The notes: generated by a model from the letters alone, not told the origin. A stretch of 64,000 nt of DNA from Alphaproteobacteria bacterium (GCA_965206365.1 CBDBJL010000016.1:130283-194282), one strand, 5' to 3'. Shown: positions 10,377 to 50,401, numbered from the stretch's first letter. Translations and numbers: made by a program.

Positions 10377-12638
10377 ATGATTCATTTCCACTCAATTGGT
10401 TTAAAGAGTATTGATAGTTTGCCTATTGTTTATAAAATTCAAATCTTAACTTTATTATTTGTTATGATAAGTTCAACGGTGATGGCGGTACTTGTAGATC
10501 GGCTTACCGTTGATGCAACCTATTCCAATGTTTATACTTATCTTCAATCTATTGGCTCACAGCGCAAGCAAGCATTAGAAATAGATTTTCAATCTAATAT
10601 ACGTGCCATTAAGCTCTTAGCATCAAGCGCACCTACAAGAAATATGATGATCAATTTTGATGAAGCCTGGCTATTTGCCCAAGAAAATGATGAGCTGGAA
10701 GAGGTGATCTCACTTTATACAACTGAAAATCCAAATCCTGTGGGTCAACGCGACCTGCTTTTCCATCCCTATGATCCCTCTAGCTATAGCCAATATCATA
10801 ATGATTATCACCGGATAATGCTGAATTTTCAAGAAATTAATGGTTTTTACGATGTCTATCTTATAGATCTAAAAGGCAATATTATTTATAGCGTTGAAAA
10901 AGAAGCCGATTTTGGGCTTAATATTCATAATTCTGAAATCTTAAAAGATTCTGGAATTGCCAATGCCTTTAATGTGGCATTGAAAGCTTCTGAAAATGGT
11001 GATTCTCCTGAGGCTTCATATGCAGAATTTTCTAGCTATGCACCCAGCAATGGAGAGCCCACATCTTTTCTATCAAAATCAATTTTCAACCCAATAACCA
11101 AAAAAAATCTAGGCATTCTTGTCGTTCAGTTGCATCTTTCTAAAATTACCGATATTACCCTTAACCCCGGAGGGTTAAATGAAGAGACCGAGGTTTTACT
11201 GATTAATTCAGATTTTGTTTTTGTTGCCCCATCGCGGTTATTTGATGACCAAACAATCATTTTTCAACGCGTTTTAGACGATAGTGAAATGATTCGAAAC
11301 AATTTATTGCGCGCTTCAACGCAAACCTTACAATCAAAAGATGAAATCGATGAGGATTTTCAAGATATTTTAGAGAATTACACAGAAAAAACCATTAATC
11401 ATCTGGGTTACCCCGTTCTTAGGGTCGTTGATACAGTTTTATTTTATGATACAATTTATCCGATAATCGTAGAAAAAAGTATCAAAAGTTCCTTGGCACC
11501 ACTTCGTCATCTTGAAACCATGATGGGAATCACCACAATTGGGATCTTGATTAGCATGTTTTTCATAACCACCCTCACCTCGCACACCATTAGCAATCCA
11601 ATTGTCGCTGTTACCAATGCCATGAAAAAATTGGCCAGTGGCGATACCAACGTGCATCTTAAAAATTTGGTAAACCACAAGAATGAAGTAGGTCATATGG
11701 TGGAAGCTGTCAATGTTTTCCGTGAAAACTCAGTCAGAAACCAAACTCTGCAGGCCGAAAAAGAAACCCGTGAAAAAGTAGTAAAAGAACGATTTGAAAA
11801 ACGCGATAATTTAATCCATCTTTTTCAGGATAATATTGTTAAATTGCTTAAGAATGTCTCTGAATCTGTATCCATTATGGAACATAGCAATCATGTTGTT
11901 AACGTTGCCGTGCGTGAAACCCACAAATATTCTAGCGAAATCTCTACTGCAACGGAAAAAGCAACCGGAAATGTTCAGCTTGTGGCTGCTTCAACAGCAC
12001 AGATGGCAACATCAATTAACGAAATTAATGAAAATATGCAAGAATCACTTTCTGCATCCAACAAAGTTGCTGAAACAGTCTCTGAAACAGACGTTGTTGT
12101 TAAAAATATGTCGAGGCTTTCCAGCAGTATTGGCGATATTGTCTCCCTGATTAACGACATTGCTGGGCAAACCAACCTATTAGCACTTAATGCTACTATT
12201 GAAGCCGCACGTGCGGGTGAAAGCGGTAAGGGATTTGCCGTTGTTGCCAACGAAGTAAAGAATTTAGCAACACAAACCACGAAAGCTACTGAAGAGATCT
12301 CCCAGCAAATTACAAGTATTCAAAGTATTTCAGGGCAAGCCAATGGTGCGATCGTTGGTGTTCAAGGAGAAATCGAACTCCTTAACAATATGATGTCTGC
12401 AATTACTGCGGCTGTAGAAGAACAGTCTGTTACGACTGAAGAAATTAAACATGCGAGTACAGAAGCCTCGATAGGCACCATTGAAGCCAATAATAAGGTA
12501 GGAAAAATTGCAGAACAAGTAACTGACAGCTTGAAACAATCAGAAGATATGTCATCTTCTGTGCAGGACACAGTTACAATTCTTAAAGAATTGCACGATG
12601 AGATTCAAACATTTTTGGATAATTTGTCTAAAACCTAA
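10377..12638 (+). CDS. Methyl-accepting chemotaxis protein (periplasmic sensor + HAMP + MCP signalling domain)
   Basis: Highly conserved MCP signalling motif [31 protein letters not shown]; N-terminal TM, periplasmic region, second TM. Confidence 0.85.
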
Positions 12639-12839
12639 TCTAGAATCTTATCGACAACATTAAAAAAAACACTAAGCTTGCCTTCATTAGATAGGTGTTA
12701 TATATTTAACTAATTTGTGACCATGCTTAAATGTTGACGCGAAGTTTGTTTGTATTATTAATGAAGTGATTCTTTATATAGAAGTGGTATCCATTATTGC
12801 TTATGTTATTAAATAGTGATTGTATTTTAAGGAAAAACT

Positions 12840-15131
12840 ATGAAATCTAAGATGAAATTCTTAAAGTTGGATATTATTCGTAATTGGCCGGTAAACGTTA
12901 AAATTCAAAGTTTAACGATGTTGTTTGTTATTCTTACATCAATCATCATGGCACTTCTTGTTGATATTCGTACCACGAACGATGTAACACAAACCGCTAC
13001 GTATAATTTGCTAACCACAATTAAGGAACGCAATAAGATCTTAGACCTCTATATCGAGGGAAAAGTAAGCAATTTAGTCCTTATGGCCTTGAATGAAGCA
13101 ACGCTTAAAGCTTCTAGAAATTTTACTCAGGAATGGAATTTTGCGAAAGAAGATAATAATATCGAAGATATTATCTCACTTTACACCACTAATAACCCTA
13201 ATCCTGCAAATGAACGTGAACTGCTCATAGCCCCCGATGATAATCTCTCTTATGGTTACCATAATGAGCATAAAACTTATCACCCTGGTTTTGTAACATT
13301 ACAACAAATTGATGAATTAAATGATATTCTTGTGCTCAATCTTGAAGGTGACGTTGTCTACAGCGTTAAAAAGAAAGCAGATTTTGGGCAAAATGTCGTT
13401 GAAGGCGAACTTGCAAATACCGGACTTGGTAAAGTTTTTGCCGATGCTGTAACAATTGCCACCTCTGCAAATGAGGCAACTAGTTATGAAGAATTAATTA
13501 GCTATGAAGAATTATCGCTCTATGCTCCGGCTGATAATCAACCCGTATTTTTTCTGGCAACGACAATATATGATCCGGAAAATCACCAACCCCTTGGTGT
13601 TATTGTGATCAAAATTAATAATGATGCTCTCAGCGAAATTACCTCAGACACTAAAAATGCTCATACGAAAATAGAATCCTTTTTGGTGAATGGGAATTTA
13701 GAATTTATAACCCCATCGCGATTTCTTAGTAACGATATTGTCTTAAAACGTCGTTTGGAGGGTCGTGATTTAATTAAAAAACATTTCTCGTCGCTCCTGA
13801 ATCCTGCTTCCGAACACTCGGAAGCAGATTCCTTAAATTTCGAAGAAGGTCATGACGATAATGATAACATTTTTATTGAGCAGACCATTAACCATCTTGG
13901 TTATCCGGTGCTAAGTGCAGTGAACGTATTTTTGATTAACAGCTCCCCCTATGCGCTGATTGTTGAAAATAGTGTTGAAAGTATTTTGGTACCAGTTCGT
14001 CGCCTTGAAGCCATGATGGGATTTGCCGCGTGTGGAATTCTGATTGTAATGTTCTTTTTAACGTTGATCACCTCACGTACAATTAGTAGCCCAATTATCG
14101 CAGTTACCAATGCAATGAAAAATTTAGCCGGTGGCGATACAAGCATTACTCTCAATCATTTAAAGCAAGAAAATGAAATTGGCGATATGGTTGAAGCGGT
14201 AGGTATTTTTCGCGATAATATGATTAAAAGTCAAACCCTGCAAACTGAAAAAGATCAACATGATGACGCAGAGAAACAGCGATTTGTAAAACGCGACAAA
14301 TTAACCCAAAACTTCCGTAACAATGTTGTTGATTTGCTAGAACAAGTCTCTGGTGCCATGTATAACATGGAAGAGGCCAATAAAATTGTTACCACTGCTG
14401 TGCGGCAAACCCACGAATATTCTAACGATATTTCTAGTGCAACCGAAAAAGCGACACAAAATGTTCAGCTTGTCGCCTCTTCAACATCACAAATGGCAAC
14501 ATCGATTAACGAGATTAATGAAAATATGCAAGCCTCGCTTTCCGCGGCCAATAAAGCCGCAGAAACAGTTGCTGAAACAGATGTCGTAGTCAAAAACATG
14601 TCAGAACTTTCAACCAATGTTGGTGATATTGTCTCGTTAATTAACGATATTGCCGGACAAACTAACCTCTTAGCACTCAATGCTACCATCGAGGCTGCAC
14701 GCGCGGGGGAAAGCGGTAAAGGCTTTGCCGTTGTTGCCAATGAAGTGAAAAATCTAGCCACACAAACCACCAAAGCTACCGAGGATATCTCCAAGCAAAT
14801 TACGAATATTCAGGGTATTTCTATGCAAGCGACAACTGCCATTGTCAGTATCCAAGAAGAAATTCAGCTTGTGAACGACATGATTAGTACGATCACAACC
14901 GCAATGGAAGAACAAGCCGTTACCACCCAAGAAATTAACAAAGCCAGTACCGAGGCATCGATAGGCACTATGGAAGCCAATAATAAAGTCGCAAAAGTTG
15001 CAGAGCGAGCTACTGATACCTTACATCAATCCGAGGATATGTCATCTTCAGTACAAAATACTGGTCAAATTTTGGACAAATTACGCGGTGAAGTACGAAC
15101 ATTTTTAGATAATTTATCGACTGATACGTAA
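12840..15131 (+). CDS. Methyl-accepting chemotaxis protein, tandem paralogue of the upstream MCP
   Basis: Same architecture and near-identical signalling domain; divergent sensor domain. Confidence 0.85.
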
Positions 15132-15766
15132 TCTATCAAAATCTAAAATCATTACGCAACTACAAAGCAGCCAGAATTGATGGTTAAATTATTTGCCATT
15201 TTATTTCTTCTTCAAAGCGGGCTTGTGCGTTCAATCAACAAAATATCAATAAAGTCACCCTTTTTTGAGCTTTCCCTTTAAGAAAATTTTTATCGTTCAT
15301 GGCCATGATCCATGACAGCGGGTGATTATGGTTATTCTAAAGCTGAAGGCGCAGAAAAAGTTAGTGCCAGAATTTTATCTTGGAAATAGGGATGATATGG
15401 CATCTTTTGGTCGTGAAAAAATGGTAATTTAAAAAGGAACATGAAAGGTGCCGTCTGACACAGAGGGTATTTCCGTAGAAGGCAGCTTGAGTTTGTAATA
15501 ACCAAAGCAAGAATGCTTAATAAAATTTTAGGAGCCGAAAGAAAACCCAAATTCTGTTGCTAAGGTAAGGCTCTGCAAAAAATAATGGTGGCAAGTATTT
15601 TTTCAAGTTATTTCCCTAGAATCTTATTATTAAGTATGGTGAAATTTATTACTAGTTTGAAGATTAGTTTTTATTAAACAGTCATGTATATGAAAAATAA
15701 TTTTTTTTTACCATACCATTCGTACTTGATAATCTACAATGATCATTGAAGTTTCTTTTGTTCCTG

Positions 15767-15943
15767 CTAATTCATTCGCTGTTTCAAGCATACGTTATGA
15801 TAGCTAGTATAAATTCCCTCAAAGTCCCTTTTAATGTTTTCGTATTTATGCTTTTCTAAGCATTCTTCTGCCTGCGCAGAATTTACGATACGCAAGCTGA
15901 AGATAAAGCCGGCGCCGATAAGTGTTTTGACAGATTTATTCAT
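15767..15943 (-). CDS. Small secreted Cys-containing peptide (Sec signal ...IVNSAQA|EECLEK...)
   Basis: 58-aa ORF starting MNKSVKTLIGAGFIFSLRIVNSAQA with AxA cleavage site, mature ~33 aa with 2 Cys; partial nucleotide copy at 30131-30185. Confidence 0.35.
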   Translation of the reverse strand: MNKSVKTLIGAGFIFSLRIVNSAQAEECLEKHKYENIKRDFEGIYTSYHNVCLKQRMN

Positions 15944-16061
15944 TGTTGTCTCCTCAATGAAATAGTGAAAAATTAGAAATTTTTCTATAGCGAAAAACAT
16001 GCTAAAAGATGGCTAATGATCGTCAGAAATATTTAGAATATCAATTTGGGAATAATCTAAA

Positions 16062-16208
16062 TAATTTTGTAGAATTCCATATATTTTTGCCTCCATATAT
16101 CCGGCGTTAGCCTCTTTCGCATTTCTAAATTTTCCGCGACGCCCTCGAATGCCTTAACTGCATTGTCTAAATCTCTTCGATTAATATCTGCAAAAGTAGA
16201 TTGCATAT
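16062..16208 (-). CDS. Small hypothetical protein (49 aa, MQSTFADINRRDLDNAVKAFEGVAENLEMRKRL...)
   Basis: Short ORF below the ORF-track cutoff; coding-like but unsupported by homology. Confidence 0.2.
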
Positions 16209-16277
16209 AATTTTCGTCTTATCGTTTCATAAGGATAAATCGCACTGCACCTTTTATCGAAAAATTATCAAGAACGA

Positions 16278-16580
16278 ATGATTTTTCTATTGCGCAAAAC
16301 GGTGCCAAGGCTTCTCGCAATATTAATCATAGTGCCAAAATTGCGAAAACATTTCCATCACATAAATATTCCTGATGCGCTTATAGTGGCAGATGGTGAC
16401 CAATGGGATTTGCTACAAAGTGATTTGGCGAATAATATAGGATACAAAATTTCAGCATATCAGGAGGTGATGAAAAAAGATTTCAGAAATTCAGCGGCCG
16501 CTTCAAGCGGAGGAGCTGGGTGACGATACTATTGCGATATTTAGGTTCGGAGATTTCACCGGTTGGATTATTAAAAAAAA
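16278..16580 (+). pseudogene. 3' remnant of a class I SAM-methyltransferase gene, paralogue of 59038-59619, frameshifted
   Basis: 16500-16580 translates to EELGDDTIAIFRFGDFTGWIIKKNSN* versus EELGDDIIEVFRFGDFTGWIIEKNSN* at the C-terminus of the 59038-59619 protein; upstream segment (KISAYQEVMKKD) matches in another frame. Confidence 0.55.
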
Positions 16581-16767
16581 CTCAAACTAAATCATTTGAT
16601 ATAATAGTTTAAAAATTTATTCTAAAACTGAAAAAACTTAAACCATGTTTCGAATAAGAGCAAACCATGTTTCTTGCATTTCCCGTCACATAGGAAAATT
16701 TTAAGAAAACCCTGGAAGAAAACCCTGGGCTGGAAATGCTAAGGGCGCATCATCTGCCCGACATTTT

Positions 16768-17070
16768 TTGGCCTCCAGTAATTTTGTCTCCCCCCAAAGC
16801 TACACCAAAAATAACTTAAACGCTCCCGTGGATGATCGTGAGACCAAAACCTTGGCACGCCCACCGCAAAATCCTGGAGGCACGTATGTAAGAGATCTTG
16901 ACGGCGCATCGCCTTTGGTCTTAAAGGACCGATTTAAATTGGGCGCAAGCTCGGCAGTATTTTCCAAGGGACGGCCTTACCCAATATCGACTTTCATGAA
17001 CCCGCGGTCTGCTAAGTTTTTCGCTATAGCAGCAGGCACAATCGGCGACCTAAGTAACGAAGAATGGTAG
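16768..17070 (+). CDS. Hypothetical protein
   Basis: 100-aa ORF in a gene-poor patch; no motif. Confidence 0.2.
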   Translation: MASSNFVSPQSYTKNNLNAPVDDRETKTLARPPQNPGGTYVRDLDGASPLVLKDRFKLGASSAVFSKGRPYPISTFMNPRSAKFFAIAAGTIGDLSNEEW

Positions 17071-17342
17071 ACAAGTTAAACAGAGGGAAATTTTTGCAAA
17101 AATGTGCGTGGCAATCTCACCCGTAAGCGCAGTTATCACAACTCAAACAATCGCTATTTGAACCAGCGGATTAAAATCGGGTGGTGGTTCAGCAAGGGTT
17201 GCCACGAAAGAATTTGATAATAAGAGCTTTTTGCGAAAAAAATGGGCAATATGTTTTATTTTTTAGAGGATAAGGATTAAAATATTTATTCTCTGATAAT
17301 AAATTTATACCTTAGACTAGGAAATTTTATTGGCGCGCATGA

Positions 17343-18506
17343 TTATTTATTCTGTAATTTACGCGCTAGCTTTTCTAGCATATTCAACGATGATTGCAAT
17401 TGCCCGAGCGAGATAAATTCATCAGCCTTATGGGCTTGTTCTATAGAACCTGGACCGCAAACAACCACATCCATGCCCATCGATTGAAACAGCCCCGCCT
17501 CGGTACCAAACGCCACAAGCTCTCGATTGTTCTTACCGGTTAATTCAGCCACGAGCTCTATGGCTTTGTTATTTTCAACCGGTATCAGCCCTTCTACCTC
17601 GCCCACAATATGAGTGATAATGTTTGACTCGCCATAAATTTTTTGCATCTTAGGCAAAAGATGCTGGTGACAATATTTATGCATTTCACCTTTCACAAAA
17701 GCCGCATCTGTATCTTGTACGGGGCGCAGATCCCAAGCTACTTGGCAAGAAGCAGCAATCACATTAGAGGCAATGCCACCATGAATAGAACCGATATTAA
17801 GCGTGGTGAAAGGCGGGATAAATTTCCCATTTTGTGGCGATCGGTCAGCAAGCTCTGTGCGTAATGATTTAAGGTAGGCAACATAATCAACAGCATATTC
17901 TACGGCATTAACCCCAAGTTCGGGGCGCGAACCATGCCCCGGTAGGCCTTGAAATTCGGTTACATATTCATAGCAACCCTTATGGCCTTCAATCATCACC
18001 ATCTCGGTTGGCTCACCAATAATCGCCATCGCTGGGCGAATTTTTTTTTCGACCAGAATTTTAATTAACTCTTGGGCACCAAGGCAGCCCGTCTCTTCAT
18101 CATGGGTGAAGCTGAAATGCAGAGGTCGCGATAAAGGCGCTGAAGTAAATTGGGGGCATAAAGCCAAACAAGTGGCAATAAAGCCTTTCATATCGCAACT
18201 ACCGCGACCATATAATTTCGCATCGATTGCCACCATTTTGAAAGGATCATTGAACCAATTCTGCCCCTCTACAGGGACAACATCACTATGGCCCGATAAA
18301 ACAATACCGCCTTCGCTCATGGGCCCGATTGTGGCAAATAAATTGGCTTTGTTTTGGCTTTTATCGTAAAAAATTGCAACAGAGATGCCAAAACTATCAA
18401 GATAATTCGCAATATATTCTATAATATCTAAATTGCTTTGCGCGGAAATGCTCGGGAATGCAATTAAGTCGCGTAAAATATTTTGAGTTTTTTCTAGTAA
18501 AGTCAT
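17343..18506 (-). CDS. M20-family metallopeptidase/deacylase (ArgE/DapE family)
   Basis: SGHSDVVPV, HDEETG and EGHKG metal-binding motifs. Confidence 0.75.
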   Translation of the reverse strand: MTLLEKTQNILRDLIAFPSISAQSNLDIIEYIANYLDSFGISVAIFYDKSQNKANLFATIGPMSEGGIVLSGHSDVVPVEGQNWFNDPFKMVAIDAKLYGRGSCDMKGFIATCLALCPQFTSAPLSRPLHFSFTHDEETGCLGAQELIKILVEKKIRPAMAIIGEPTEMVMIEGHKGCYEYVTEFQGLPGHGSRPELGVNAVEYAVDYVAYLKSLRTELADRSPQNGKFIPPFTTLNIGSIHGGIASNVIAASCQVAWDLRPVQDTDAAFVKGEMHKYCHQHLLPKMQKIYGESNIITHIVGEVEGLIPVENNKAIELVAELTGKNNRELVAFGTEAGLFQSMGMDVVVCGPGSIEQAHKADEFISLGQLQSSLNMLEKLARKLQNK

Positions 18507-21644: not shown

Positions 21645-22199
21645 AACAAGTGATTATATGATATTGTAATTTTAATTGCAATTGATTTCAATTCAATAAT
21701 GCATATATTATTCAACAATATCGCTTAATTCGCCCGTGGTTTTTGGGCTCCTAATTCTAGTATCAATCCAGAAATTTTGAAAAAAATAGTTGCTTATGAT
21801 GCAACTATGCCTTTAAAAACTTTATTCCGCGAGCAGCTACTGAAAGAATGTGGGTTTGTATCTATTGCAATTGATAAATTATGCCCCCGATGAGCCATGA
21901 GCGAGCTTTAAAATATTTTCCGTTGCCAATTCCCAAAAAACATTCCAGAAACCAAACCAAACCAAAATATTCTGGGTAAAAGGGAATATTTTTGATAATA
22001 TTCAAGTAATATTTGTGCCAGAATTGCCGTATTTCTGGTGGCAATTCATCTTTCGGGCGTAAATAATTTCCTATTGGCAAGATTGCCCCCCTAATATAAT
22101 CCGAGCATTGGATTTAGTCTAAGCAAATCGATCCCGTAAAATCATGGCAAAAATTATCGTGAAACAACAACGAAAACAAAGCTAAGCATAGAAAAGATT

Positions 22200-22356
22200 T
22201 ATGGAAATTCACCACAAAGCATTGAGCCTCTGCCCGGTAAACCAAGCAAAGGCCTAAATTATCTTAGGCGAACCTAAGAAATATCTTTCAGATGTATTAT
22301 AAAATACACCCTTACTATAGCCCTTAATCCATCCCAAACGAATTATGCTATACGAA
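22200..22356 (-). ncRNA. Candidate tracrRNA (tracr-1): long imperfect anti-repeat followed by two hairpins
   Basis: Minus strand 22353->22315 reads GUAUAGCAUAAUUCGUUUGGGAUGGAUUAAGGGCUAUAG, complementary to the crRNA repeat with a UU bulge after a 6-bp lower stem; followed by hairpins UGUAUU-UUAU-AAUACA (22293-22308) and CUUAGG-UUCG-CCUAAG (22263-22278); 3' end undefined. Confidence 0.55.
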
Positions 22357-22576: not shown

Positions 22577-22660
22577 AAAAAAAAGACTCAACTATACTTA
22601 GGCGAATCTAAGAGATATCTTTCAGATGTATTATAAAATACATATTTTCTATAGTTCCCG
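22577..22660 (-). ncRNA. Second tracrRNA-like module (tracr-2): 11-nt perfect anti-repeat at the 5' end, same hairpins, U8 terminator
   Basis: Minus strand reads GGGAACUAUAG (22659->22649, perfect complement of crRNA repeat nt 2-12), then UGUAUUUUAUAAUACA and CUUAGAUUCGCCUAAG hairpins, AGAUUC/GAGUCU stem, UUUUUUUU (22584->22577); candidate extended -10 TGTTAGAAT at 22674->22666 places the TSS at the anti-repeat. Confidence 0.4.
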
Positions 22661-22756
22661 CCGATATTCTAACATAATTTTTGGCATTTTTATTTTCTAA
22701 AAAATATTACAAAGACACCTATTAATAGATATCATCGGTGAATAAAAAGATGTAAT

Positions 22757-22764
22757 ATTGACAC
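22757..22764 (+). promoter_or_regulatory. Candidate extended -10 (TGTAATAT) for cas9
   Basis: TGn-TAATAT ~48 nt upstream of the cas9 ATG; SD AAGGAG at 22796-22801. Confidence 0.25.
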
Positions 22765-22811
22765 TTAATTGTGTATTTAAGGGGGATAAGGCGCAAAGGA
22801 GCTTCAAAGTA

Positions 22812-25800
22812 ATGGTAAAAAAACAACCCAGAAACCCTCAAAATTATATTTTAGGAATTGATGTTGGAGTCGGCTCGCTAGGCGTTGCCTTAATTGCAAT
22901 CGATGGGGATACGCCTAGAATTTTAAATGGTAGTTCGTTAATTTATCCCAGTGCAAGTGGAAATAGTGACAGGCGCACCCATAGGTTAGCGCGTAACTAC
23001 TTCCAAAATCGGACAAAACGTAAGAAATTGCTTCAGAAGAAACTAACAGAGTTTTTGCAATTACAAGGTGAAGGATATCGGATCGGGCAAACCCATATCA
23101 AACCCTATAACGCCGAAAGATTTCCCAAAGTTAAGAATAAAAAAAATAACTCTTGTGTGGCGTTACGCGCCATGGCTTTGGATGAACAACTAACTTTACC
23201 TGAATTATTTCGAGTTTTTATGCACCTTGCAACGCATCGCGGAGTCCGCCTTACCAAAGCAATCAAAGAGGCTGAGCAAAAAGAAACCGGTGTGCTGAAA
23301 CAAGCGATACAGGAATTGCAAGAGCAAATGCAAACAGCAGACAATACAGGAAAAATGATTCGCACTGTGGGTGAATATCTTGCCAAGCAAGAAAAAAAGG
23401 GTCAGGCTATAAAGTTGCGTCCAGATGCTTTTAATAAACGAGCTATTTTTCTACTCACGTGCGATGATTATCAAAGAGTTTGACCAGATTATTGCCAAGC
23501 AACAAGAATATTACCCTGAAATTTTTACACCGGAAAATATTCAACTTATAAAAGAAGGCTCTCTTAAAAAAACAATTGAAGGTAAAGAAAGAATAATTGG
23601 TTATGGGATTTTTTGTGAAAAAGGTGCGTATCAAAGCGCGATCGAAGAAAAAATTGGTTATTGTTGTTACCTTCCGGAAGCGGGGACCATAAGAGAGAAA
23701 CGAATTGCAATCGCTTCTAATTTGTTTCAAGAAAAGCGTTTGCTCGAACAAATTAATAATCTCCGTATTTATCAAGGTGCAAAAGCTGGCGGTGAAGCCG
23801 GGGATGGCAAATTAACTTTAGCGCAACGCGATCTTGTTTATGAAAACATGCTCGAGGAAAAAGAGGCGGTTAAGGGAAATAAAATTGGGAAATGGCTTAA
23901 TTTAGCCAGTAATTCTCGCCTTAATATTGATGCAAGTGGCAAAAAAAAATCCGAACAAGTGATCCAACCTCATGTAATTCTTGCCACAATCAAAAAAACC
24001 AAAAATTCTGAACTTTTTGCAACATGGCAGAGTTTAAGTGCTGAGGCGCAGGATTATGCAGTTAAATTATTGCATGATGAGGGGGAATTAGATGCAAATA
24101 TGAAAGCATGGGTAGAAGAATTTCCTGATTTTCCGCCCGATTGGATTGAAACATTACAAAATATTATTTTGCCACGAGGCTATGCGGCAACGGGCACCAC
24201 TGCCACTTCGAAATTGATTGCAGAATTACGCGCTGATGTGATTACTCATTACAAAGCTGAAATACGCGCTAAACTCAAACATCCTACATCTGAACCCACA
24301 GAAGATTATTTGCCATATTACGGAAGATTGCCCTCCTTAGAACATTATTGTCAGGGGGCAAGCAAGCATCCGGCCGAACCATTAGAAAAACAATTTGGTA
24401 AAATCCCCAATTCGGTCGTGCATCAATCACTCAATAAAATTCGCAAAATTCTCAACACCTATATTAAAGAATATGGTCCGCCACAAAAGATTCACCTCGA
24501 ACTTGCACGCGAGTTAAATAAATCACTTAAGGAACGTGAGAACGAGGATAAAAAAAATCAAAAAAATCAAAAAAAAAATACTAAATATAATGATAAAATC
24601 CTCACCTATAGGGACCGAACCTCGCGCAAATATCGACGCGCCTTAAAATTACATGAGTGGCAACTCCCTAAACAACAAAAAAAATTATACAAAGAGCAAA
24701 AATGTATTTGCCCGTATTCAGGAACAGAAATCAGCATTGATGATATTTTTACTGGCAAGGCCGAAATTGATCATATTTTGCCTTATTCTCAAACCATGCT
24801 CGATAATATTAGTAATTTGGTGTTATGCACAAAAGAAGCGAATTCGAAGAAGAAAAAGCAAACCCCTTACGAAGCTTTTTCTGGTGGCTATCCTGATGGA
24901 ACTGGTAGAACTTATGATGATATTCTCACAACGATTGCAGATTATCCAGAATATAAGAAGAAAAAATTTAATGAAGATGCGATGGCGCATTTTAAAAATA
25001 AAAATCTTTTCGCAACCAGATTTAAAACCGATACCCAGTATTTGGCAAAAGTGGTTCATAATTATTTAGGATGCTTAAAATTAAATCCTATCAACCAACA
25101 GCAAGATGAAAAGCATGAAAATAACCCTGAATCACAGCATGATGCTCAAGATAAAATCGACGGTGAAGTAAAGAAAAAAAGGATTATCTGTCTTTCCGGC
25201 GGTATTACCGCTGATCTGCGACATCATTGGGGCTTGGGCAATATCCTCCAAAATTTTGAACAAGATAGCCTCACCAGTGTCGGACGAGAAGAAATGGCTG
25301 ATAATATTAACAAAGATTTTTTGCAATATATCAAAACTAGACAAATCGATTTACAGAAACAGGCGAAAAAAAAGGTGCTCGATGAAGCTGAGCAAAAATT
25401 TCTCGCAATTAATCTTGCCGAACTTCAAACAAATCAGCGGGGCGACTGGGATGATTATGTTAAAAATATATTTAGGGATCGTGAAAATAAAGCAAAAAAG
25501 AATCGCCTGGATTATCGTCATCATTTCATTGATGCGATTGTGATCGCTTGTACCAATGCCTCGGAAGTAAATAGGCTTAATGCGGCAAATGCAAATTATC
25601 GAAACCAAAAAACCGAGAATACGCAAAGTTTTTACCAGCAAAAACAACAGCACCGAATCGAGCATTCAGGCGTTAAAAAACATCCCTTAAATTGGGTGAA
25701 TTTTTGCCAAGATGTTAAAGATTATTTGCGCGCTCATCCTAATTTAATCGTGCAAAATCCTAATTTCAACAGTGCATCGCGCCAGATCCATGAAGAAACT

Positions 25801-26823
25801 AATTATCGCAAAATTATTGATATTTATACTCAGAATAAAACCACACAAGCAGAAAATTATCTTCAATCTCTTGTATCCAGCCGACAATCTTTGGATAATT
25901 TAGTTGCAGAGAAAAGTTTTGATGCTTTGCTCCCAAAAAAAGAGGATTGGATGCAAACATTGCGCAAGAAAAACAGCATTTGTAAATCTCCGATCGGGGA
26001 TCGACCTCGATTTTCGCCGGAAGAATTGGAAATTGAAATTACAAAAATTACAGCGAAACTTGCAGTTCAGGCCGAAATCAAACAATTTTTAGAAGATAAA
26101 TTTCATGGAGCCAAGAAAGAAAAACGCGTTATTTATGAGGCAACAAAAGATAAGCTAGTAAAAGATAAAATCGTAAAAGGTGAACCCGAAGAAGAAAAAT
26201 TGGTAAAAACCTCTGTGCCAGAACAAATGGCATGGGCAATTACAGAATATAAAAACCGGAAAAGCAAAGGAGAAATTAACACAATATTTGGGCGCAAATA
26301 TTTCACAATCTATAAATATCTCACAGTGATTGAAATTAGAAATAAATCCCTTGAGACAGACTTAAAACAACAAAGACAAAATATCCCCACCCGCCCGCAA
26401 CGTGTGGTGGTAACCGGCAATAATTCGCATAGCGATATTTTCTACTATTACGATGACAATGGTGCCCGCCAGATTGGGTGGGAATGTATTGCCGTTATCG
26501 CTGTACGAAAAGCAGATTACCAACCCGCATGGCGGCAAAAATATCCTAAGGCGAAATTAATTGGGCAATTGCGCATTAATGATACGCTTCAAATTTGGAA
26601 CAATCCTGATCCCGAAGCTCCCCTGCGCAAAAGAATTTTGGTACGGGTACAGAAAATGTCGAAAGGATATATTAGTTTTTCGCACTTGCAACGTTCCAAA
26701 ACCGAAAATATGAGTGCTCCTTATCGGAAAGTTTCATCCATTGGTCTTTTTCAAGCTTTTGCACCCAAATTGGTCAAGCGTGATGTTACGGGCAAGGTTT
26801 ATTATCATCGTAAATTATATTAA
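22812..26823 (+). CDS. cas9: Cas9 (type II-C), ~1336 aa, interrupted by a +1 frameshift in a T5 tract at 23443-23447
   Basis: RuvC-I GIDVGVGSLGVALIA, Arg-rich bridge helix RRTHRLARNYFQNRTKRKK, RuvC-II KIHLELARE, HNH EIDHILPYSQTMLDNISNLVLCTKEANSKK, RuvC-III HHFIDAIVIACTN; ORFs 22758-23483 and 23425-26823 join seamlessly if one T is removed (..NKRAIF|YSRAMIIKEF..). Confidence 0.85.
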
Positions 26824-26836
26824 AGGAAGCTATTTT

Positions 26837-27748
26837 ATGTGGAGAATTTTGGATATTGGGCAAGATCATCGAAGCTTGTTGGTAAAAAATCATCAATTAG
26901 TGATTAAAAATAACACAGCATCTTCTAAAAATATTCTAGCAACTCTGAATTTTAACGATCTTCATGCCATTATTCTCCATGGTCATGGCATCTGGTTAAG
27001 TCGAAATGTGCTGGATCAGGCAGGTGAACATAATATTCCTGTGATTATTTGCAATGCCCAGCATATTCCCCAAACCATAACTCTGCCCGTAGTAGGGCAT
27101 TATCATTATCAGCAACGCGTTCATGGGCAAATTACTATTACACTTGCCCGACGTAAGGGTTTGTGGAAAAAAATTGTTCAAGCCAAAATCAAGGCACAAG
27201 CCTATTTGCTGAAATCTTATCAATTGCCCGAAGCCGATAGGCTGGAAGCCATGTTGGCAAAAGTTCTTGCTGGTGATGCGAATAATCACGAGGCCCAAGC
27301 AGCTCGTATCTATTGGCAGGCATTATTCGGCAGTGATTTTCGACGCAATATCGAACAACCAGGGCTAAATGCACATCTGAATTATGGTTATGCAATTTTA
27401 CGCGCATCGGTAGCGCGCTTTATTGTGGCATCGGGTTTATTACCCGCAATTGGGCTGAATCACCATAATAAGCTGAATCCATTTTGTTTTGTGGATGATG
27501 TTATGGAACCATTTCGCCCGTTAATTGATCGGTTGGTGCGTACGCATCATAAGCCATTTGCCAATCGGGTGACTCCTGAAAATAAAGCAATTTTAAGCGA
27601 TATTATCAATCACCAGCTCTATTATCGTGACGAAAATATTTCAGTGCAACATGCGGTTCAAAATTTATGCCATAGTTTTGCCCAGATTTTTTTAGGGGAA
27701 GAGAAAAATCTTGCCTTACCACCCATTATTTTTACCAATCAATTATAA
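26837..27748 (+). CDS. cas1: Cas1 integrase
   Basis: Conserved LNYGYAILRA and ...GLNHHNKLNPF... motifs; starts 14 nt after cas9 stop with SD AAGGAAG. Confidence 0.9.
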   Translation: MWRILDIGQDHRSLLVKNHQLVIKNNTASSKNILATLNFNDLHAIILHGHGIWLSRNVLDQAGEHNIPVIICNAQHIPQTITLPVVGHYHYQQRVHGQITITLARRKGLWKKIVQAKIKAQAYLLKSYQLPEADRLEAMLAKVLAGDANNHEAQAARIYWQALFGSDFRRNIEQPGLNAHLNYGYAILRASVARFIVASGLLPAIGLNHHNKLNPFCFVDDVMEPFRPLIDRLVRTHHKPFANRVTPENKAILSDIINHQLYYRDENISVQHAVQNLCHSFAQIFLGEEKNLALPPIIFTNQL

Positions 27749-27749
27749 T

Positions 27750-28076
27750 ATGCTATCGGGATATAAAACAATGTGGCTATTTATCATGTTTGATTTGCCA
27801 ACTAGCAATCGGGCTGAAGCCCGTAGTGCGAATCAGTTTAGAAATCACCTGTTACAAGAAGGTTATATTATGAAACAATTTTCTGTTTATATGCGTTATT
27901 TTGACAGTAAAAATCGCGCAAATTCGTCGCTTAGCCGAATTCAGCAGAAAATTCCACAACAAGGTATGGTGAGTGCATTATTTGTTACGGATCGACAATT
28001 TGGGCAAATTCAGAATTTTTATGGCAAAAAACCCAAAAAAAACGACGAGAAACCGACCCAATTACTGTTATTATAG
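27750..28076 (+). CDS. cas2: Cas2
   Basis: MLSGYKTMWLFIMFDLP... N-terminus typical of type II Cas2; ~108 aa; immediately precedes the array. Confidence 0.85.
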   Translation: MLSGYKTMWLFIMFDLPTSNRAEARSANQFRNHLLQEGYIMKQFSVYMRYFDSKNRANSSLSRIQQKIPQQGMVSALFVTDRQFGQIQNFYGKKPKKNDEKPTQLLLL

Positions 28077-28148
28077 GGGAATTATGTGCATTTTTTACAC
28101 GAATAAATCCCTGGAAACCATTTCATATCAAGGGTTTCCAGGGATGCT

Positions 28149-28910
28149 AGTATAGCATACTTCGTTTGGGATGGGAACTATAGCATTATTTTCAAAAGCC
28201 GATATTCCATAATAAGTATAGCATACTTCGTTTGGGATGGGAACTATAGCTACCAATACGTTGCATTTGCCCAAGAAATCAGTATAGCATACTTCGTTTG
28301 GGATGGGAACTATAGCTTGCGGCTCGTATTTTGGTAGAACAATTAAAGTATAGCATACTTCGTTTGGGATGGGAACTATAGCAAGATAATCCAAAAATCC
28401 ATGTTAAAATCAAGTATAGCATACTTCGTTTGGGATGGGAACTATAGCATCAACCATTCAATCACTGCAGCAAAGTCAAGTATAGCATACTTCGTTTGGG
28501 ATGGGAACTATAGCTAGCAACAGTGCCAGCAATGGTAAAACGCAAGTATAGCATACTTCGTTTGGGATGGGAACTATAGCAAAATATGATCAAGGGGTTC
28601 GTGACGTTTAAGTATAGCATACTTCGTTTGGGATGGGAACTATAGCATCAAACAGCAACAAGCTTGGCAAATAACTAGTATAGCATACTTCGTTTGGGAT
28701 GGGAACTATAGCCAACGCGGGTTTCGCCGTAAGCTTGCTTGGAGTATAGCATACTTCGTTTGGGATGGGAACTATAGCCAACAGGCAAATGCAAGTTCGA
28801 CATTGTTGAGTATAGCATACTTCGTTTGGGATGGGAACTATAGCTAGCAACAGTGCCAGCAATGGTAAAACGCAAGTATAGCATACTTCGTTTGGGATGG
28901 GAACTATAGC
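28149..28910 (-). CRISPR. CRISPR array: 12 identical 36-nt repeats (AGTATAGCATACTTCGTTTGGGATGGGAACTATAGC on +), 11 spacers of 30 nt; transcription inferred on the minus strand
   Basis: Exact 66-nt periodicity, repeats start at 28149+66n; minus-orientation repeat GCTATAGTTCCCATCCCAAACGAAGTATGCTATACT ends in an extended -10 (TGcTATACT), like the Neisseria II-C repeat promoter; spacers 6 and 11 identical. Confidence 0.95.
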
Positions 28911-29443
28911 TCGTTTACGGTAATATCGTAAAATGGTTCTATGCGTTCTAGTTTTTTAGTCCTTTCTTGGGGGTTAATTTTACCGTCTCCGTCTTCATCG
29001 CCTTTTAAAAAGGCTTCTTGTAGTGCTTCATGGGCACTGCAATCAACCGCTTGTGGGTCAAAATTCCAAAAGCGGTCGCGTAAATGTTTTTTTATTAAAG
29101 CTGATACTGTCCTTAGCTCGCAGGTGATGTTGGTTAGATGCTGAACGCACGTATCGCAACCAACAACACCCGATAGGCTTGCCACTGTCCCCGTAACCTC
29201 TGCCATACCGTCAAGATCCGCAACAGTTTCAGTGATCCCGGCTTCGATATCTCTAAATGTAGAGGATTGTTGCCGTGCAACATTGGTAAGGTTAATGCCG
29301 TTATTAGCAATAGATAATAAGTGTGCTGTATTTGCTGGGTTAGCATAAGCTTTAGCTATTTCATAAAGTGGTTCACCATAGCGCAAGGTAATGAAGGATA
29401 AGATAATGGCAAGATAAAGCGATGAATGGTTGGGCTTTTCCAT
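28904..29443 (-). CDS. Hypothetical protein with canonical EF-hand Ca-binding loop (DEDGDGKINPQE)
   Basis: 12-residue EF-hand loop with D1,D3,D5,G6,I8,E12; ORF terminates 2 codons inside the last CRISPR repeat. Confidence 0.4.
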   Translation of the reverse strand: MEKPNHSSLYLAIILSFITLRYGEPLYEIAKAYANPANTAHLLSIANNGINLTNVARQQSSTFRDIEAGITETVADLDGMAEVTGTVASLSGVVGCDTCVQHLTNITCELRTVSALIKKHLRDRFWNFDPQAVDCSAHEALQEAFLKGDEDGDGKINPQERTKKLERIEPFYDITVNEL

Positions 29444-29474
29444 GATTAAAGAGTCTTTTTATGTGGGTTTTATT

Positions 29475-30035
29475 TTATTTGGGGTTAATTACTTTATTAT
29501 AAATTTTTAAATATTTATGTCCGTTTGTAATTTCAGAATTTAACAAACAATTATTTTGATCAAAAACATAGATTGCTTTTTTTTCACCATCTGCTGTTCC
29601 TGCTGTACCAATAATTAATGCGCTAGTGCCGTTGCTTTTGGTGATTTGATTAGCAACAGCAAGAGCCGCGCCTTTGCTTACATCTAACGTCTTGAACGGA
29701 TTAAAATCAGACGCAACCTCTGCTTTAGACTGATATTGCTTGCAACCCTCTGATGCTTGCGCATTAACCATAATTAAAAAGGTAATGCCAGTAATCATGA
29801 AAATTATGGCTACAAAACGATAGATAACATTCATTACTTTGGTAATGCCAGTTTCATCCCTATAGGCTTTGCAAATTAGCGGGTGGATAATATTTTCGGT
29901 GATTACATATCGGATTCTTTTAAATACAAAACTGCCTGTATTAAGCAAAAAAATGCCAAAATTACATAAAATGATATTCATAGCTTTTGTATCAAGCTGG
30001 TTGCCGATAAGTAGTCTTTTGGTAAGGTTATTCAT
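29475..30035 (-). CDS. Hypothetical small secreted/membrane protein (possibly VirB5-like by position)
   Basis: Internal start MNVIYRFVAIIFMITGITFLIMVNAQA|SEGCKQY gives a Sec-type signal; lies immediately downstream of the virB4 fragment. Confidence 0.3.
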   Translation of the reverse strand: MNNLTKRLLIGNQLDTKAMNIILCNFGIFLLNTGSFVFKRIRYVITENIIHPLICKAYRDETGITKVMNVIYRFVAIIFMITGITFLIMVNAQASEGCKQYQSKAEVASDFNPFKTLDVSKGAALAVANQITKSNGTSALIIGTAGTADGEKKAIYVFDQNNCLLNSEITNGHKYLKIYNKVINPK

Positions 30036-30192
30036 TATATATCTCCTTAATGAAGGGTTAAAGAAAAAGGTATGTTTTGATAGCGCAAAAAATATGCCAA
30101 AAAATGTATGATAATGATGTGATTTAATTATTTGTTTATTTTATATTTATATTTGTCTAAGCATTCCTCCGCTTGTGCAGGGTTAGTTAAAA

Positions 30193-31233
30193 TTATATAT
30201 ATTGTTGTTGCCAGCTTTCTGGATTCAATTCTTTTAGCATATTTACTTTTTTTACAGCTTCAGCCCCGCCTTCAAAGGTTTTAAGCGCGTTGCCTAAGCC
30301 TATTAGGTTAATGTCTATGAAAGTTGATTGGGTATATTCTTCGTCTTGACGTTTGATTAGAATGGGTCTAACCGCGCCTCTAATCTCAAAGTTTCCTAGT
30401 ACAAATTCTTTTTCGGTTTCAGTAAGTTTAAATTTATCTAATTCTTCAGGATTATCTGACGTTCTAGGAAAGAAAATAAATGTTTGAGTATTGGTAATTA
30501 ATGAATTGCTGGTTTTGCCTAAGTTTGTGAGTCCTGAAACTTCTTGAAAGATAAGATTAAGAACACCATTGGATTTTCTGATGGTTCTGATATATTGTTG
30601 GATTTGCTCGGCGAAAAATTTATCTTGTAGCAAGGTTGCGCTTTCATCAACAATCATTAATGAAGGTACTGAATTAGTTTCGCAATGATTTTGTATTTTG
30701 GTAAGAAAATATGAGATTAATACTCGGAATAGATTTTCATCTTTTATGACTTCATCCATGCCGGATGCCATAAATTGACTATTTGCAATATTAAAACTAT
30801 CATGAATTCCATGAAAAATTTCCTTATATTTGCCGTCTGCGAAAGGACGTAAAAGGTCTTTAAATTTGCTTTGTGGGATGGCTTTGTACCATGTTTTTTT
30901 GAAGGTGGTTTTTTCAAGAGAGAACGAATTTTGAATAGATTCTTGGATGATTTCTTCGTATTCTGTATTATTTACAGAGATTCCAGCAATGGTTTTAAGA
31001 AAACTTGTTAAATTTTGTACATATAGAGATTTATTAGGAATATCAAATGGATTTAGATCTAATTTATCAACGTTTAACATTAGATATTTACCGTCAATTA
31101 CTTTACTGAATACTTCCATGCCTCGCTTAATATCAAATCCATAGACTTTTAACTTTCTGTAGCGTGCGATTGCTTGAGCCGCGAGGAATAATATCAAAAC
31201 TGTCTTCCCACTGCCTGAGGGTGCAAAAATCAT
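30193..31233 (-). CDS. VirB4/TraC/TrbE-family type IV secretion ATPase, C-terminal domain only (N-terminal ~440 aa missing)
   Basis: Walker A FAPSGSGKTVLILFLAAQ (cf. VirB4 G-P-T-G-S-G-K-S-V-L-L-N-F-L), Walker B LMIVDES, RKSNGVLNLIFQE and TQTFIFFP motifs in VirB4 order; first Met 3 nt from an orphan CRISPR repeat. Confidence 0.6.
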   Translation of the reverse strand: MIFAPSGSGKTVLILFLAAQAIARYRKLKVYGFDIKRGMEVFSKVIDGKYLMLNVDKLDLNPFDIPNKSLYVQNLTSFLKTIAGISVNNTEYEEIIQESIQNSFSLEKTTFKKTWYKAIPQSKFKDLLRPFADGKYKEIFHGIHDSFNIANSQFMASGMDEVIKDENLFRVLISYFLTKIQNHCETNSVPSLMIVDESATLLQDKFFAEQIQQYIRTIRKSNGVLNLIFQEVSGLTNLGKTSNSLITNTQTFIFFPRTSDNPEELDKFKLTETEKEFVLGNFEIRGAVRPILIKRQDEEYTQSTFIDINLIGLGNALKTFEGGAEAVKKVNMLKELNPESWQQQYI

Positions 31234-31236
31234 GCT

Positions 31237-31272
31237 AGTATAGCATACTTCGTTTGGGATGGGGGCCATAGC
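31237..31272 (-). repeat. Orphan degenerate CRISPR repeat (33/36 identical), 2.3 kb beyond the array
   Basis: AGTATAGCATACTTCGTTTGGGATGGGGGCCATAGC versus consensus ...GGGAACTATAGC; the embedded TGcTATACT -10 is intact and points into the virB4 fragment. Confidence 0.85.
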
Positions 31273-31294: not shown

Positions 31295-32131
31295 TCAAGT
31301 TTTTTTCAAGGAAATTAATTTGTAAATTTTATATTTCTCAAAATTTTCTTGATTACGATTCTTGCTATACTTAAATTGGAGCTTAGCAATTTTTTTCCGT
31401 GAAAAATATTTAATAATGCCATAGATAATTTTTTTCCTATGCGTTAAAAATTTGTCTAAAATTTGACACACCGGTATTAACCGATTCACAATCACTTCAT
31501 TCACCAAAGCCATGTTTGGCGAGACATTGCGCGTTACATCAAGATCAGAAATAATTTTATAATTACTTGCTGCGATTAACCGATCAAAATTACCAAGCGA
31601 ATGCCCGCCCCCAAGTGGCGAGCGCCCGTCAATATTATCACGACTGAAAAAATCAAAAATCACAACATTCCCCAATGGAGTTAATATTTCATCCAGAACA
31701 CGCAATGATTTTTCCATATCAACATATTGAAAACTTTCACTAAAAAAAACCAAATCATACTTTATACCCGAATACAAACCTTTATCGATAAAATCTTCAA
31801 ATCCACATTGATAAAAAATTGCTTCCGATATTTCTCGACATTGCTGAATCATCATCTTAGATGGAATAATACCTTCAATATTTTGATAACCCATTGCCTC
31901 TAGCTTTTTGATATTTTGACCAACCCCACAACCAACATCTAAAATTCGCGCCTGCTTATTCGATGAAATTAATTCTTCAATATGGCCAAAAAGAACCTCT
32001 GAATAACGTTCTTGCGCTGCAATGAAATCTTTGATTGTTGGGATCGCACCTTCTTGCCAAAAACCATAATGCAGATCCTCAACGTCTAATATTTTTTGGG
32101 CCATTACCAAACCCATTTCTTTACTATCCAT
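31295..32131 (-). CDS. Class I SAM-dependent methyltransferase
   Basis: Motif I ILDVGCGVGQN; start taken at MDSKEMG.. to avoid overlap with tRNA-Trp. Confidence 0.6.
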   Translation of the reverse strand: MDSKEMGLVMAQKILDVEDLHYGFWQEGAIPTIKDFIAAQERYSEVLFGHIEELISSNKQARILDVGCGVGQNIKKLEAMGYQNIEGIIPSKMMIQQCREISEAIFYQCGFEDFIDKGLYSGIKYDLVFFSESFQYVDMEKSLRVLDEILTPLGNVVIFDFFSRDNIDGRSPLGGGHSLGNFDRLIAASNYKIISDLDVTRNVSPNMALVNEVIVNRLIPVCQILDKFLTHRKKIIYGIIKYFSRKKIAKLQFKYSKNRNQENFEKYKIYKLISLKKT

Positions 32132-32190
32132 AGATTGCCCCCTTCTGCATCTGTTTTTAAGAACCAAAATCCTAAATATGCCATCCCCGA

Positions 32191-32266
32191 TCCAAGAATA
32201 TGGCAGGAGCGGAGGGACTTGAACCCGCAACCCCCGGTTTTGGAGACCGGTGCTCTACCAATTGAG
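32191..32266 (-). tRNA. tRNA-Trp (anticodon CCA)
   Basis: Reverse complement AGGAGTGTAGCTCAATTGGTAGAGCACCGGTCTCCAAAACCGGGGGTTGCGGGTTCAAGTCCCTCCGCTCCTGCCA folds as a cloverleaf; CCA encoded. Confidence 0.9.
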
Positions 32267-32303
32267 CTACACTCCTAAATATTGCCACTATCACTATGGT
32301 TTG

Positions 32304-32377
32304 TGGAGCGGGTGATGGGGATCGAACCCACACAGCTAGCTTGGAAGGCTAGAATTCTACCATTGAACTACACCCGC
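32304..32377 (-). tRNA. tRNA-Gly (anticodon TCC)
   Basis: Reverse complement GCGGGTGTAGTTCAATGGTAGAATTCTAGCCTTCCAAGCTAGCTGTGTGGGTTCGATCCCCATCACCCGCTCCA; acceptor GCGGGTG/CACCCGC. Confidence 0.9.
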
Positions 32378-50306: not shown

Positions 50307-50401
50307 TCAATTATCCTTCAAATAATACCTTCCATTCTCACTGTAACATAAAAAGTAACAATAGTCATGAATTTTAAATTTATTTTTACATCTTCTTAAA
50401 T

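Follow-up and report, generated by a model that had tools for sequence, protein, structure and literature searches.

A 2.3-kb insert with a truncated virB4 gene in the apparent oldest-spacer slot of a predicted type II-C CRISPR array

This report concerns a block of 2,326 bp that lies between repeats of a clustered regularly interspaced short palindromic repeat (CRISPR) array in an Alphaproteobacteria bacterium (GCA_965206365.1). The array belongs to a 64,000-nucleotide stretch of DNA (CBDBJL010000016.1:130283-194282), which was analysed at its full length and is referred to below as the window; all coordinates are counted from its first nucleotide. An earlier note, made from the sequence alone, had described 2.3 kb of DNA derived from a type IV secretion system (T4SS) sitting between CRISPR repeats, and the arrangement is indeed as described: canonical repeats run to 28910, a copy matching at 33 of 36 positions is found at 31237-31272, and three minus-strand open reading frames (ORFs) occupy the 2,326 bp between them. 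Overall, that description proved accurate and the interpretation attached to it partly right, with a frameshift in cas9 among the observations that weaken it. The block is a real and unusual spacer-slot insert, and it is a variant of known array–invader interactions rather than a new kind of system.

The array and the block within it

The array (28149-28910, with the minus strand as the CRISPR RNA (crRNA) strand) alternates 12 identical repeats (36 nt each) with 11 spacers (30 nt each). The canonical repeat is AGTATAGCATACTTCGTTTGGGATGGGAACTATAGC; by chance one would expect neither these exact copies nor the one with three mismatches at 31237-31272. Spacer length follows a strict ruler, being 30 nt in 62 of the 64 unique spacers of the window and of L001 and L006, two of the related type II-C loci that were fetched through Cas1 (designated by L numbers). 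Spacer 6 (28515-28544) is identical to spacer 11 (28845-28874), and the array contains an exact internal duplication of 102 nt. Such spacer or segmental duplications are frequent in the type II-C arrays compared, occurring also in L014, L017, L018, L023, L031 and L041. Searched against phages, plasmids, the window and every fetched locus, the spacers matched nothing significantly, and their ends display no nucleotide bias against which the block ends could be compared. On the other side of the array lies the leader (28077-28148, strand not assigned), which is the acquisition side in type II-C systems. It contains a hairpin with an 11-bp stem, similar to one in the L001 leader, and ends in ATGCT beside repeat 1. 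The same ATGCT thus precedes both repeat 1 (28144-28148, leader end) and the terminal repeat (31232-31236, block end), and together with the end of the repeat it forms the palindrome ATGCTA-TAC-TAGCAT.

The block (28911-31236, minus strand; 2,326 bp) occupies what appears to be the oldest-spacer slot, and its three co-directional ORFs are all intact, amounting to 2.1 kb of ORF without a stop codon. Nearest to repeat 12 is a 179-aa ORF (28904-29443, minus strand), which is open to the block end and terminates, as the earlier note had pointed out, inside the last repeat (TAG at 28904-28906). The label of EF-hand protein given to its product is less secure, in that a canonical DxDxDG loop is visible but the EF-hand match is weak (Pfam E = 9e-4, below the gathering score); a single-sequence AlphaFold model was unusable (predicted local distance difference test score 43.7). 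The second ORF, an ORFan of 186 aa (29475-30035, minus strand), contains an internal signal-peptide-like segment (...VNAQASEGC). Neither product has a homologue in the protein database and HMMER searches. These are followed by the remnant of a small secreted-protein gene (30128-30184, minus strand; NPAQAEECLDKYKYKINK, ending in a stop), which lies directly after the stop codon of the third ORF, virB4', and lacks its 5' half. GC content is 0.33 in virB4' and the 186-aa ORF and 0.43 in the 179-aa ORF, and 0.34-0.43 in the sampled host and cas genes; by GC and third-position GC, virB4' and the 186-aa ORF fall at the low end of the host-gene range, and the 179-aa ORF is host-like. No further degenerate repeat was found inside the block at up to 13 mismatches.

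The virB4' ORF (30193-31233, minus strand; 346 aa) encodes a VirB4/TrbE protein reduced to its C-terminal P-loop ATPase half, and begins with an ATG 3 nt from the terminal repeat. It matches TIGR00929 (VirB4_CagE) at positions 441-788 of 792 (E = 6e-49), scoring 166.9 bits against a full-length cut-off of 643, and the N-terminal domain PF03135 (CagE_TrbE_VirB) is not matched. In exhaustive HMMER searches it aligns from residue ~434-458 through the C-terminus of VirB4 proteins of 780-830 aa. The ORF represents the C-terminal 43% of VirB4, with ~440 N-terminal residues missing, and an alignment with seven homologues places the break one codon after the conserved His of the family, just before Walker A. 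The earlier claim of a VirB4 ATPase that starts 3 nt from the repeat, before Walker A, and lacks about 440 N-terminal residues is borne out by the TIGR00929 and HMMER alignments. Walker A, Walker B and the invariant residues G21, K22, D208 and E209 are all retained. As to whether the truncation falls exactly at the repeat, the gene is truncated there, but exactness is demonstrable to ~5 nt and on the virB4 side only. Family-compatible sequence may reach the boundary on that side, where homology is secure to ~5 nt, and the side of the 179-aa ORF is without a homologue; the junction positions themselves fit the 36-nt repeat register. The closest homologues of virB4' are 30-34% identical (HMMER, 1.8 billion representative proteins), the best plasmid-borne VirB4 in PLSDB is at most 28% identical, and a word-index search of 5.8 billion proteins returned the protein itself and homologues at 23-25% identity only.

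A second T4SS fragment in the window

A second, decayed T4SS fragment is located at 15767-16320 (minus strand), where the 3' end of a virB4 (its final ~73-85 codons, interrupted by a stop) precedes a 77-aa small secreted-protein ORF. The match came from a tblastn search of the block proteins against all fetched sequences (window 16287-16078; 57.5% identity over 73 aa, E = 5e-18), and at the nucleotide level this second virB4 end is 68% identical to the block copy. The small-gene remnant of the block is likewise 81% identical over 37 nt to 15843-15879. The 186-aa ORF is weakly similar to 15818-15895, and its signal-peptide region, which resembles that of the small secreted protein after the second virB4, looks like a paralogue of it. 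The order virB4, then small gene, is common to both places, which argues that the block is a contiguous piece of a T4SS operon. Judged from its sequence, the block would be a foreign piece of this kind, consisting of the 3' 43% of virB4, the small-gene remnant and two ORFans, and cut inside genes at both ends. The T4SS origin put forward earlier is demonstrable only for virB4' and, by synteny with the second copy, for the small-gene region after it; it does not extend to the 179-aa and 186-aa products, which have no homologue.

The second fragment lies in 2.2 kb of gene-free DNA (15131-17343), with no CRISPR repeat near it and no Pfam or Rfam match around it. Just upstream of it are two tandem paralogous genes for methyl-accepting chemotaxis proteins (52% identical; 10377-15131). 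The chromosome therefore appears to hold two or more fragments of this type of T4SS operon, which have diverged from each other. Since the second of these is free of repeats, T4SS debris is not specific to the array, and the direct link that had been proposed between this CRISPR locus and a conjugative T4SS element is weakened accordingly. The arrangement from virB4' to the EF-hand gene without flanking repeats in relatives had been named in advance as evidence against that proposal, and the second fragment, with its virB4 3' end followed by the small gene, comes close to it.

The CRISPR-Cas locus

Based on gene content and order, the locus is assigned to a predicted type II-C CRISPR-Cas system with the Neisseria/Campylobacter layout, in which the array lies 3' of cas2 and antisense to the cas genes. 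ORF calls and Pfam searches identified cas9, cas1 and cas2 only, with csn2 and cas4 absent and no further cas ORF between 22758 and 28076. The cas1 gene (26837-27748, plus strand; PF01867, E = 1.3e-23) encodes a protein 66% identical to L001 Cas1, and cas2 (27750-28076, plus strand; PF09827, E = 8.9e-12) follows it. The cas9 gene (22758-26823, plus strand; HNH, RuvC_III and Cas9_a domains in Pfam) is interrupted close to 23439 by a +1 frameshift that leaves two ORFs, 22758-23483 and 23425-26823. In an end-to-end alignment these cover residues 15-193 and 202-1254 of L001 Cas9, which is intact at 1256 aa. There is no long homopolymer at the shift (23425-23445), and because the other window genes that were checked look intact, the frameshift is probably real. 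The CRISPR locus may consequently be dead.

With respect to guide production, a candidate trans-activating CRISPR RNA (tracrRNA) is encoded upstream of cas9 (copy A, 22205-22354, minus strand). It begins with an anti-repeat (22319-22354), which is repeat-like with 12 mismatches on the minus strand, and continues through CUAUAG, an AAGG nexus-like motif, CUGAAAGAU and hairpins; against the whole canonical repeat it gives 34 predicted pairs and -49.7 kcal/mol. Its 3' module is duplicated as a direct repeat (D3), with the copies 334 nt apart and 82% identical over 73 nt. The long anti-repeat is present only in the upstream copy; the partial second module (22582-22662, minus strand), which is adjacent to cas9, has an anti-repeat of only 11-12 nt (GGGAACTATAG) and weak predicted pairing (-19.7 kcal/mol). 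An extended -10 element, TGCTATACT, occurs on the minus strand of all 12 canonical repeats and in the terminal repeat as well. We infer that crRNAs would be read from the minus strand, towards cas2, from predicted promoters inside the repeats. The minus-strand anti-repeat and the extended -10 in each repeat also uphold the earlier view that the block has crRNA polarity, and its placement in a spacer position is supported as well.

The terminal repeat

The repeat on the far side of the block (31237-31272, minus strand) matches the canonical repeat at 33 of 36 positions and keeps an intact extended -10. Its three mismatches all fall within the outer 9 nt (plus-strand positions 28, 29 and 31, which are crRNA positions 9, 8 and 6), so that in the crRNA sense it starts with GCTATGGCCCCC where the canonical repeat starts with GCTATAGTTCCC. 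Type II-C arrays gain new spacers at the cas-proximal repeat, the last to be transcribed, and their oldest repeat is the one transcribed first (Feussner et al. 2025, PMC12080349). This first-transcribed 'extra' repeat carries mutations in 60% of arrays, for the most part inside the first 15 nt (PMC12080349). Among the related loci with a visible array end, mismatched repeats were found at the cas-distal end only, the clear cases being L006 and L034 (7 mismatches each), L009 (5), L018 (2) and L026 (2), all with the changes at the outer end of the distal repeat.

In terms of both its cas-distal position and its mutation pattern (crRNA positions 6, 8 and 9), 31237-31272 thus appears to be the array's own oldest, first-transcribed 'extra' repeat, and not an orphan made by the insertion event, as had been supposed. 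Position 8 of the terminal repeat is the base found in the L001 and L006 repeats, and at positions 8 and 9 the terminal repeat would form Watson-Crick pairs with the tracrRNA where the canonical repeats have G-U. It has therefore probably retained the ancestral base at two or three of the positions where they differ and is probably older than the common ancestor of the 12 canonical repeats. If the terminal repeat is the array's own, the block fills the oldest-spacer slot or slots of one continuous array. The resemblance to the extra repeats described in PMC12080349 extends to the cas-distal first-transcribed position, the mutations within the first 15 nt and the retained embedded promoter. Unlike those repeats, it lies 2,326 nt from the next repeat instead of 30, and its mutations strengthen the predicted tracrRNA pairing (-54.9 as compared to -49.7 kcal/mol for the canonical repeat), where an extra repeat would be expected to show weakened pairing.

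A private change in this repeat, T to C on the plus strand at 31267, creates an ATG (31269-31267) in frame with virB4'. The longest virB4' ORF extends to this codon, inside the terminal repeat, and the database version of the protein, 358 aa, begins there. No convincing ribosome-binding site accompanies this ATG, and we treat it as a coincidence.

Genomic surroundings and searches for a source

Beyond the terminal repeat, a gene for an S-adenosylmethionine-dependent methyltransferase (31295-32131, minus strand) has its stop codon 22 nt from the repeat, and tRNA-Trp and tRNA-Gly genes (32201-32377, minus strand) border a low-GC CRISPR island that comprises the tracrRNA, the cas genes, the array, the block and the methyltransferase gene. 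The 11-mer AGATTGCCCCC is found at both edges of this island (22080-22090 and 32132-32142). Both copies are ribosome-binding regions of minus-strand ORFs, and ~19 such pairs are expected by chance in 12.7 kb. The neighbouring genes that were checked (chemotaxis, peptidase, FliX, gyrB, recF, dnaN and secB) are intact housekeeping genes, and other VirB genes are absent. Elsewhere in the window, minus-strand ORFs at 49551-51265 contain tandem repeats of 9, 18 and 27 nt (GGCAGGAAC and similar; 50043-51115) that suggest a protein of short peptide repeats.

Autonomous mobile elements offer a poor description of the block. An insertion sequence (IS) or transposon was rejected because no transposase family matched, terminal runs reach at most 6 nt when inverted and 7 nt when direct, and neither terminal inverted repeats nor a target-site duplication is present. 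An integrative and conjugative element at a tRNA gene, with the nearby tRNA-Trp as the candidate site, was likewise rejected: the window contains no second att-like copy, 12-mers of tRNA-Trp and tRNA-Ile do not recur in it, the neighbours are housekeeping genes, and a full T4SS is lacking, with only virB4 fragments present. One tRNA-Gly 12-mer does recur in the window (47748), in what looks like a chance match.

Searches for a donor were negative throughout. No source element or intact T4SS operon was present in any collection searched, which answers the earlier suggestion that an intact virB operon be sought; no close relative was found either, and we count both results as weakening the proposal. 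The block DNA had no match in PLSDB. The canonical repeat, as an exact sequence or as a degenerate family pattern, is absent from JGI metagenome contigs and IMG/VR, and it is absent from PLSDB too. At 90% identity the block proteins, DnaN, Cas1 and others are singletons, and no database record of an exactly matching gene turned up. The only useful relative is L001 (Cas1 66% identical), whose array runs off its contig.

Origin of the block

The insertion event is either one that was aware of repeat boundaries or a rare coincidence, since the junctions appear to lie at repeat boundaries and both ends fall inside genes. The intact ORFs and the preserved VirB4 motifs fit an insertion younger than the divergence of the terminal repeat. 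Capture by recombination or by mis-integration had both been raised by the earlier note, and both remain leading candidates. Our own preference, held tentatively at a probability of about 0.4, is that the block arrived by homologous recombination between the array and a targeted invading conjugative element, and not by transposition. This estimate includes a variant in which repeat–repeat homology would have joined the array to a donor that already carried repeats.

Type II systems acquire new spacers near an existing cut site. In the proposed scheme, the two oldest adjacent spacers would both have been taken from the element, from protospacers 2.3 kb apart and in the same orientation. A crossover at one spacer–protospacer pair would integrate the element, and a second crossover at the other pair, or alternatively single-strand annealing after Cas9 had cut the now-chromosomal protospacer, would delete the rest of it. 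A 'spacer-repeat-spacer' unit would in this way be replaced by the continuous element sequence between the protospacers, and such a double crossover would give junctions at repeat boundaries and arbitrary gene truncation automatically. The product should also be stable and free of self-targeting, as the first protospacer would have a protospacer adjacent motif (PAM) but no crRNA, and the second would have a crRNA but would abut a repeat instead of a PAM. The scheme would place the PAM at AAGACAGT, the 8 nt that directly follow the first 30 nt of the block (31207-31236) on the crRNA strand. Recombination between spacers and protospacers has precedents (Varble 2019 and Watson 2018, as they are cited in PMC8616872), and in Neisseria a DNA fragment that contains a repeat is taken up by recombination into the type II-C array already present, where rearrangement by repeat recombination is common (PMC12477760). 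The frequent spacer duplications in the arrays compared here serve as a further precedent. A simpler version, with a single crossover at one spacer followed by an internal deletion, was rejected, as it predicts identical 30-mers at the block ends and these differ.

Several considerations weigh against recombination with a targeted element. No source element, protospacer or relative with an intact spacer pair was found, the spacers yielded no PAM, and it is an assumption that the terminal 30-mers (28911-28940 and 31207-31236) were once spacers. Two crossovers on homologies of 30 bp would be very rare. The ATGCT shared by the block end and the leader end is left unexplained, and such a match occurs only once in ~900 junctions of other arrays. 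The second T4SS fragment (15767-16320) has no repeats, which indicates that non-specific insertion and decay also occur in this genome. As for the repeat–repeat variant, it requires a donor virB4 already truncated at a repeat, and so only moves the question elsewhere.

That shared pentamer is the particular strength of the main rival explanation, an oversized spacer: a linear 2.3-kb piece of a conjugative element would have been integrated by Cas1-Cas2, through both of its ends, at the leader–repeat junction. A 5-nt displacement of the cut on the leader side would duplicate 41 bp, made up of ATGCT and the 36-nt repeat, and this is the sole model to predict the identity of 28144-28148 with 31232-31236, for which the empirical chance is ~1 in 900. 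Integrase chemistry duplicates the whole repeat, which we count in its favour, and the model accounts for the repeat-bounded position, the arbitrary gene cuts and the absence of transposon features. The displaced cut is nevertheless ad hoc, the ATGCT match was spotted after the fact, and the codons under it (S-M) are compatible with native VirB4 sequence. We know of no report of kb-sized Cas1-Cas2 products, which counts against the model, and the strict ruler of 30 nt in 62 of 64 unique spacers also argues against the block as an integrase product. With the block as the founding insert, repeat 12 and the terminal repeat should be siblings, yet they differ at 3 of 36 positions and the terminal repeat is probably the ancestral one. 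An extra deletion of older units is therefore needed: 11 normal spacers would have been added on the leader side, and the older units would have been lost by a repeat–repeat deletion that fused the block onto the old terminal repeat. In support of such a course, short or single-repeat type II-C arrays of Neisseria acquire spacers at very high rates, and block deletions of old spacers are common (PMC12477760). If block and terminal repeat were equally old and neutral, finding three changes in 36 nt alongside no stop in 2.1 kb would have a joint probability of ~0.02, a rough estimate for which the stop-creating share of substitutions in the block ORFs was put at ~4-5%. On balance we regard integration of an oversized spacer as unlikely.

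A still less likely origin is illegitimate insertion, a random piece of foreign DNA having been joined to the array within its oldest 30-bp spacer, for instance in the course of break repair. The exactness of the junctions would then be illusory, with a few nucleotides of the old spacer perhaps surviving at the block ends, and the event would have struck a neutral array end in a locus whose cas9 was already broken. The frameshift in cas9 fits this account, as do the limit of ~5 nt to which exactness can be verified, on the virB4 side alone, the decayed gene already contained in the block, and the comparable fragment at 15767-16320, which lies without a repeat in 2.2 kb of gene-free DNA. Set against this, the chance of hitting one 30-bp target in a genome of several Mb is ~1e-5, and leaving 5 nt or fewer of the old spacer on the virB4 side costs another factor of ~5. 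There is also no demonstrable microhomology or filler DNA, and the ATGCT identity would go unexplained. We consider it distinctly unlikely that the donor, an element or DNA of another strain, carried a solitary repeat or a repeat-block-repeat unit that entered by repeat–repeat recombination. A fragment with one repeat and a marker does recombine into a Neisseria type II-C array (PMC12477760), and a mediating role in array integration has been proposed for the solitary repeat units of mobile elements (Faure 2019, as cited in PMC8616872); the repeat family, however, was not found in IMG/VR, JGI metagenome contigs or PLSDB, and the truncation of virB4 at the donor repeat would stay unexplained. 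Finally, a misjoin of the array to unrelated DNA through its repeats deserves mention, as the sequence appears to be a single contig of an unsampled lineage and the array has an exact internal duplication of 102 nt. Such an artefact is very improbable: both junctions set unique sequence against a repeat, the privately mutated terminal repeat runs into a unique trailer and the methyltransferase gene, the other side of the block joins a repeat preceded by a spacer of the same array, and the neighbouring window genes that were checked are intact.

Relation to known systems

To our knowledge, CRISPR arrays are normally interrupted by transposable elements only, and spacer size is held within a nucleotide or two. 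Kilobase-sized interruptions of type II-C arrays comparable to the block are provided by the IS insertions of L018 (12087-13572), L023 (12542-13789) and L031 (13661-15657), which come from metagenome-assembled genomes of uncultured gammaproteobacteria (two Porisulfidus-related, one Arenicellales). These inserts carry an IS3-like (OrfA/OrfB) or IS4-like transposase and inverted ends and lie inside a spacer or repeat, whereas the block has neither feature and is bounded by whole repeats. A canonical Cas1-Cas2 product resembles the block in being placed between two repeat copies with the foreign DNA cut arbitrarily. The block differs from it in measuring 77 times the 30-nt ruler, in having non-identical flanking repeats, and in a putative duplication of 41 rather than 36 bp. 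Casposases demonstrate that Cas1 chemistry can insert kb-sized DNA with target duplication; casposons have terminal repeats, however, and the block has none. With full VirB4/TrbE/CagE ATPases (TIGR00929; PF03135 and PF19044), virB4' has in common the C-terminal P-loop domain, Walker A and B and the invariant residues, but it lacks the N-terminal ~440 residues and has no other VirB genes around it.

The closest parallel to the preferred origin, recombination with a targeted element, is the spacer–protospacer recombination of Varble et al. 2019 and Watson et al. 2018, which, as far as its citation in PMC8616872 goes, likewise relied on ~30 bp of spacer homology and joined invader DNA exactly at the spacer. 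Those cases, as represented there, were single crossovers that brought CRISPR loci into phage particles, whereas the present one would be a double event with element DNA fixed in a chromosomal array. We know of no description of such a double-event fixation.

Present role and implications

At present the block is probably an inert relic. The -10 element of the terminal repeat is retained, and no terminator is predicted between the methyltransferase gene and the terminal repeat or on the minus strand inside the block, so the block should be traversed by a long minus-strand transcript that continues into the array. If transcription starts as in Neisseria, at the 6th nt after the repeat, it would be predicted to begin at ~31231, just downstream of the virB4' ATG. 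Processing by tracrRNA and RNase III at repeat 12 could then release a crRNA whose guide, 28934-28911, would be aimed at the 179-aa gene in the source element, although a guide of this kind would probably be without effect given the frameshifted cas9.

The significance of the block depends on which origin is correct. A random insertion into a dead locus would be a curiosity only. Oversized integration, if true, would be natural evidence that the CRISPR integrase can insert gene-sized DNA as its casposase relatives do, and would bear on the casposon origin of CRISPR adaptation. If recombination with a targeted element is true, the block would preserve, in fixed form, the trace of a spacer-guided recombination event that joined an array to its target. 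This process is known to date from laboratory phage-CRISPR hybrids alone, and it would represent a route by which immunity loci may capture the genes of invaders.

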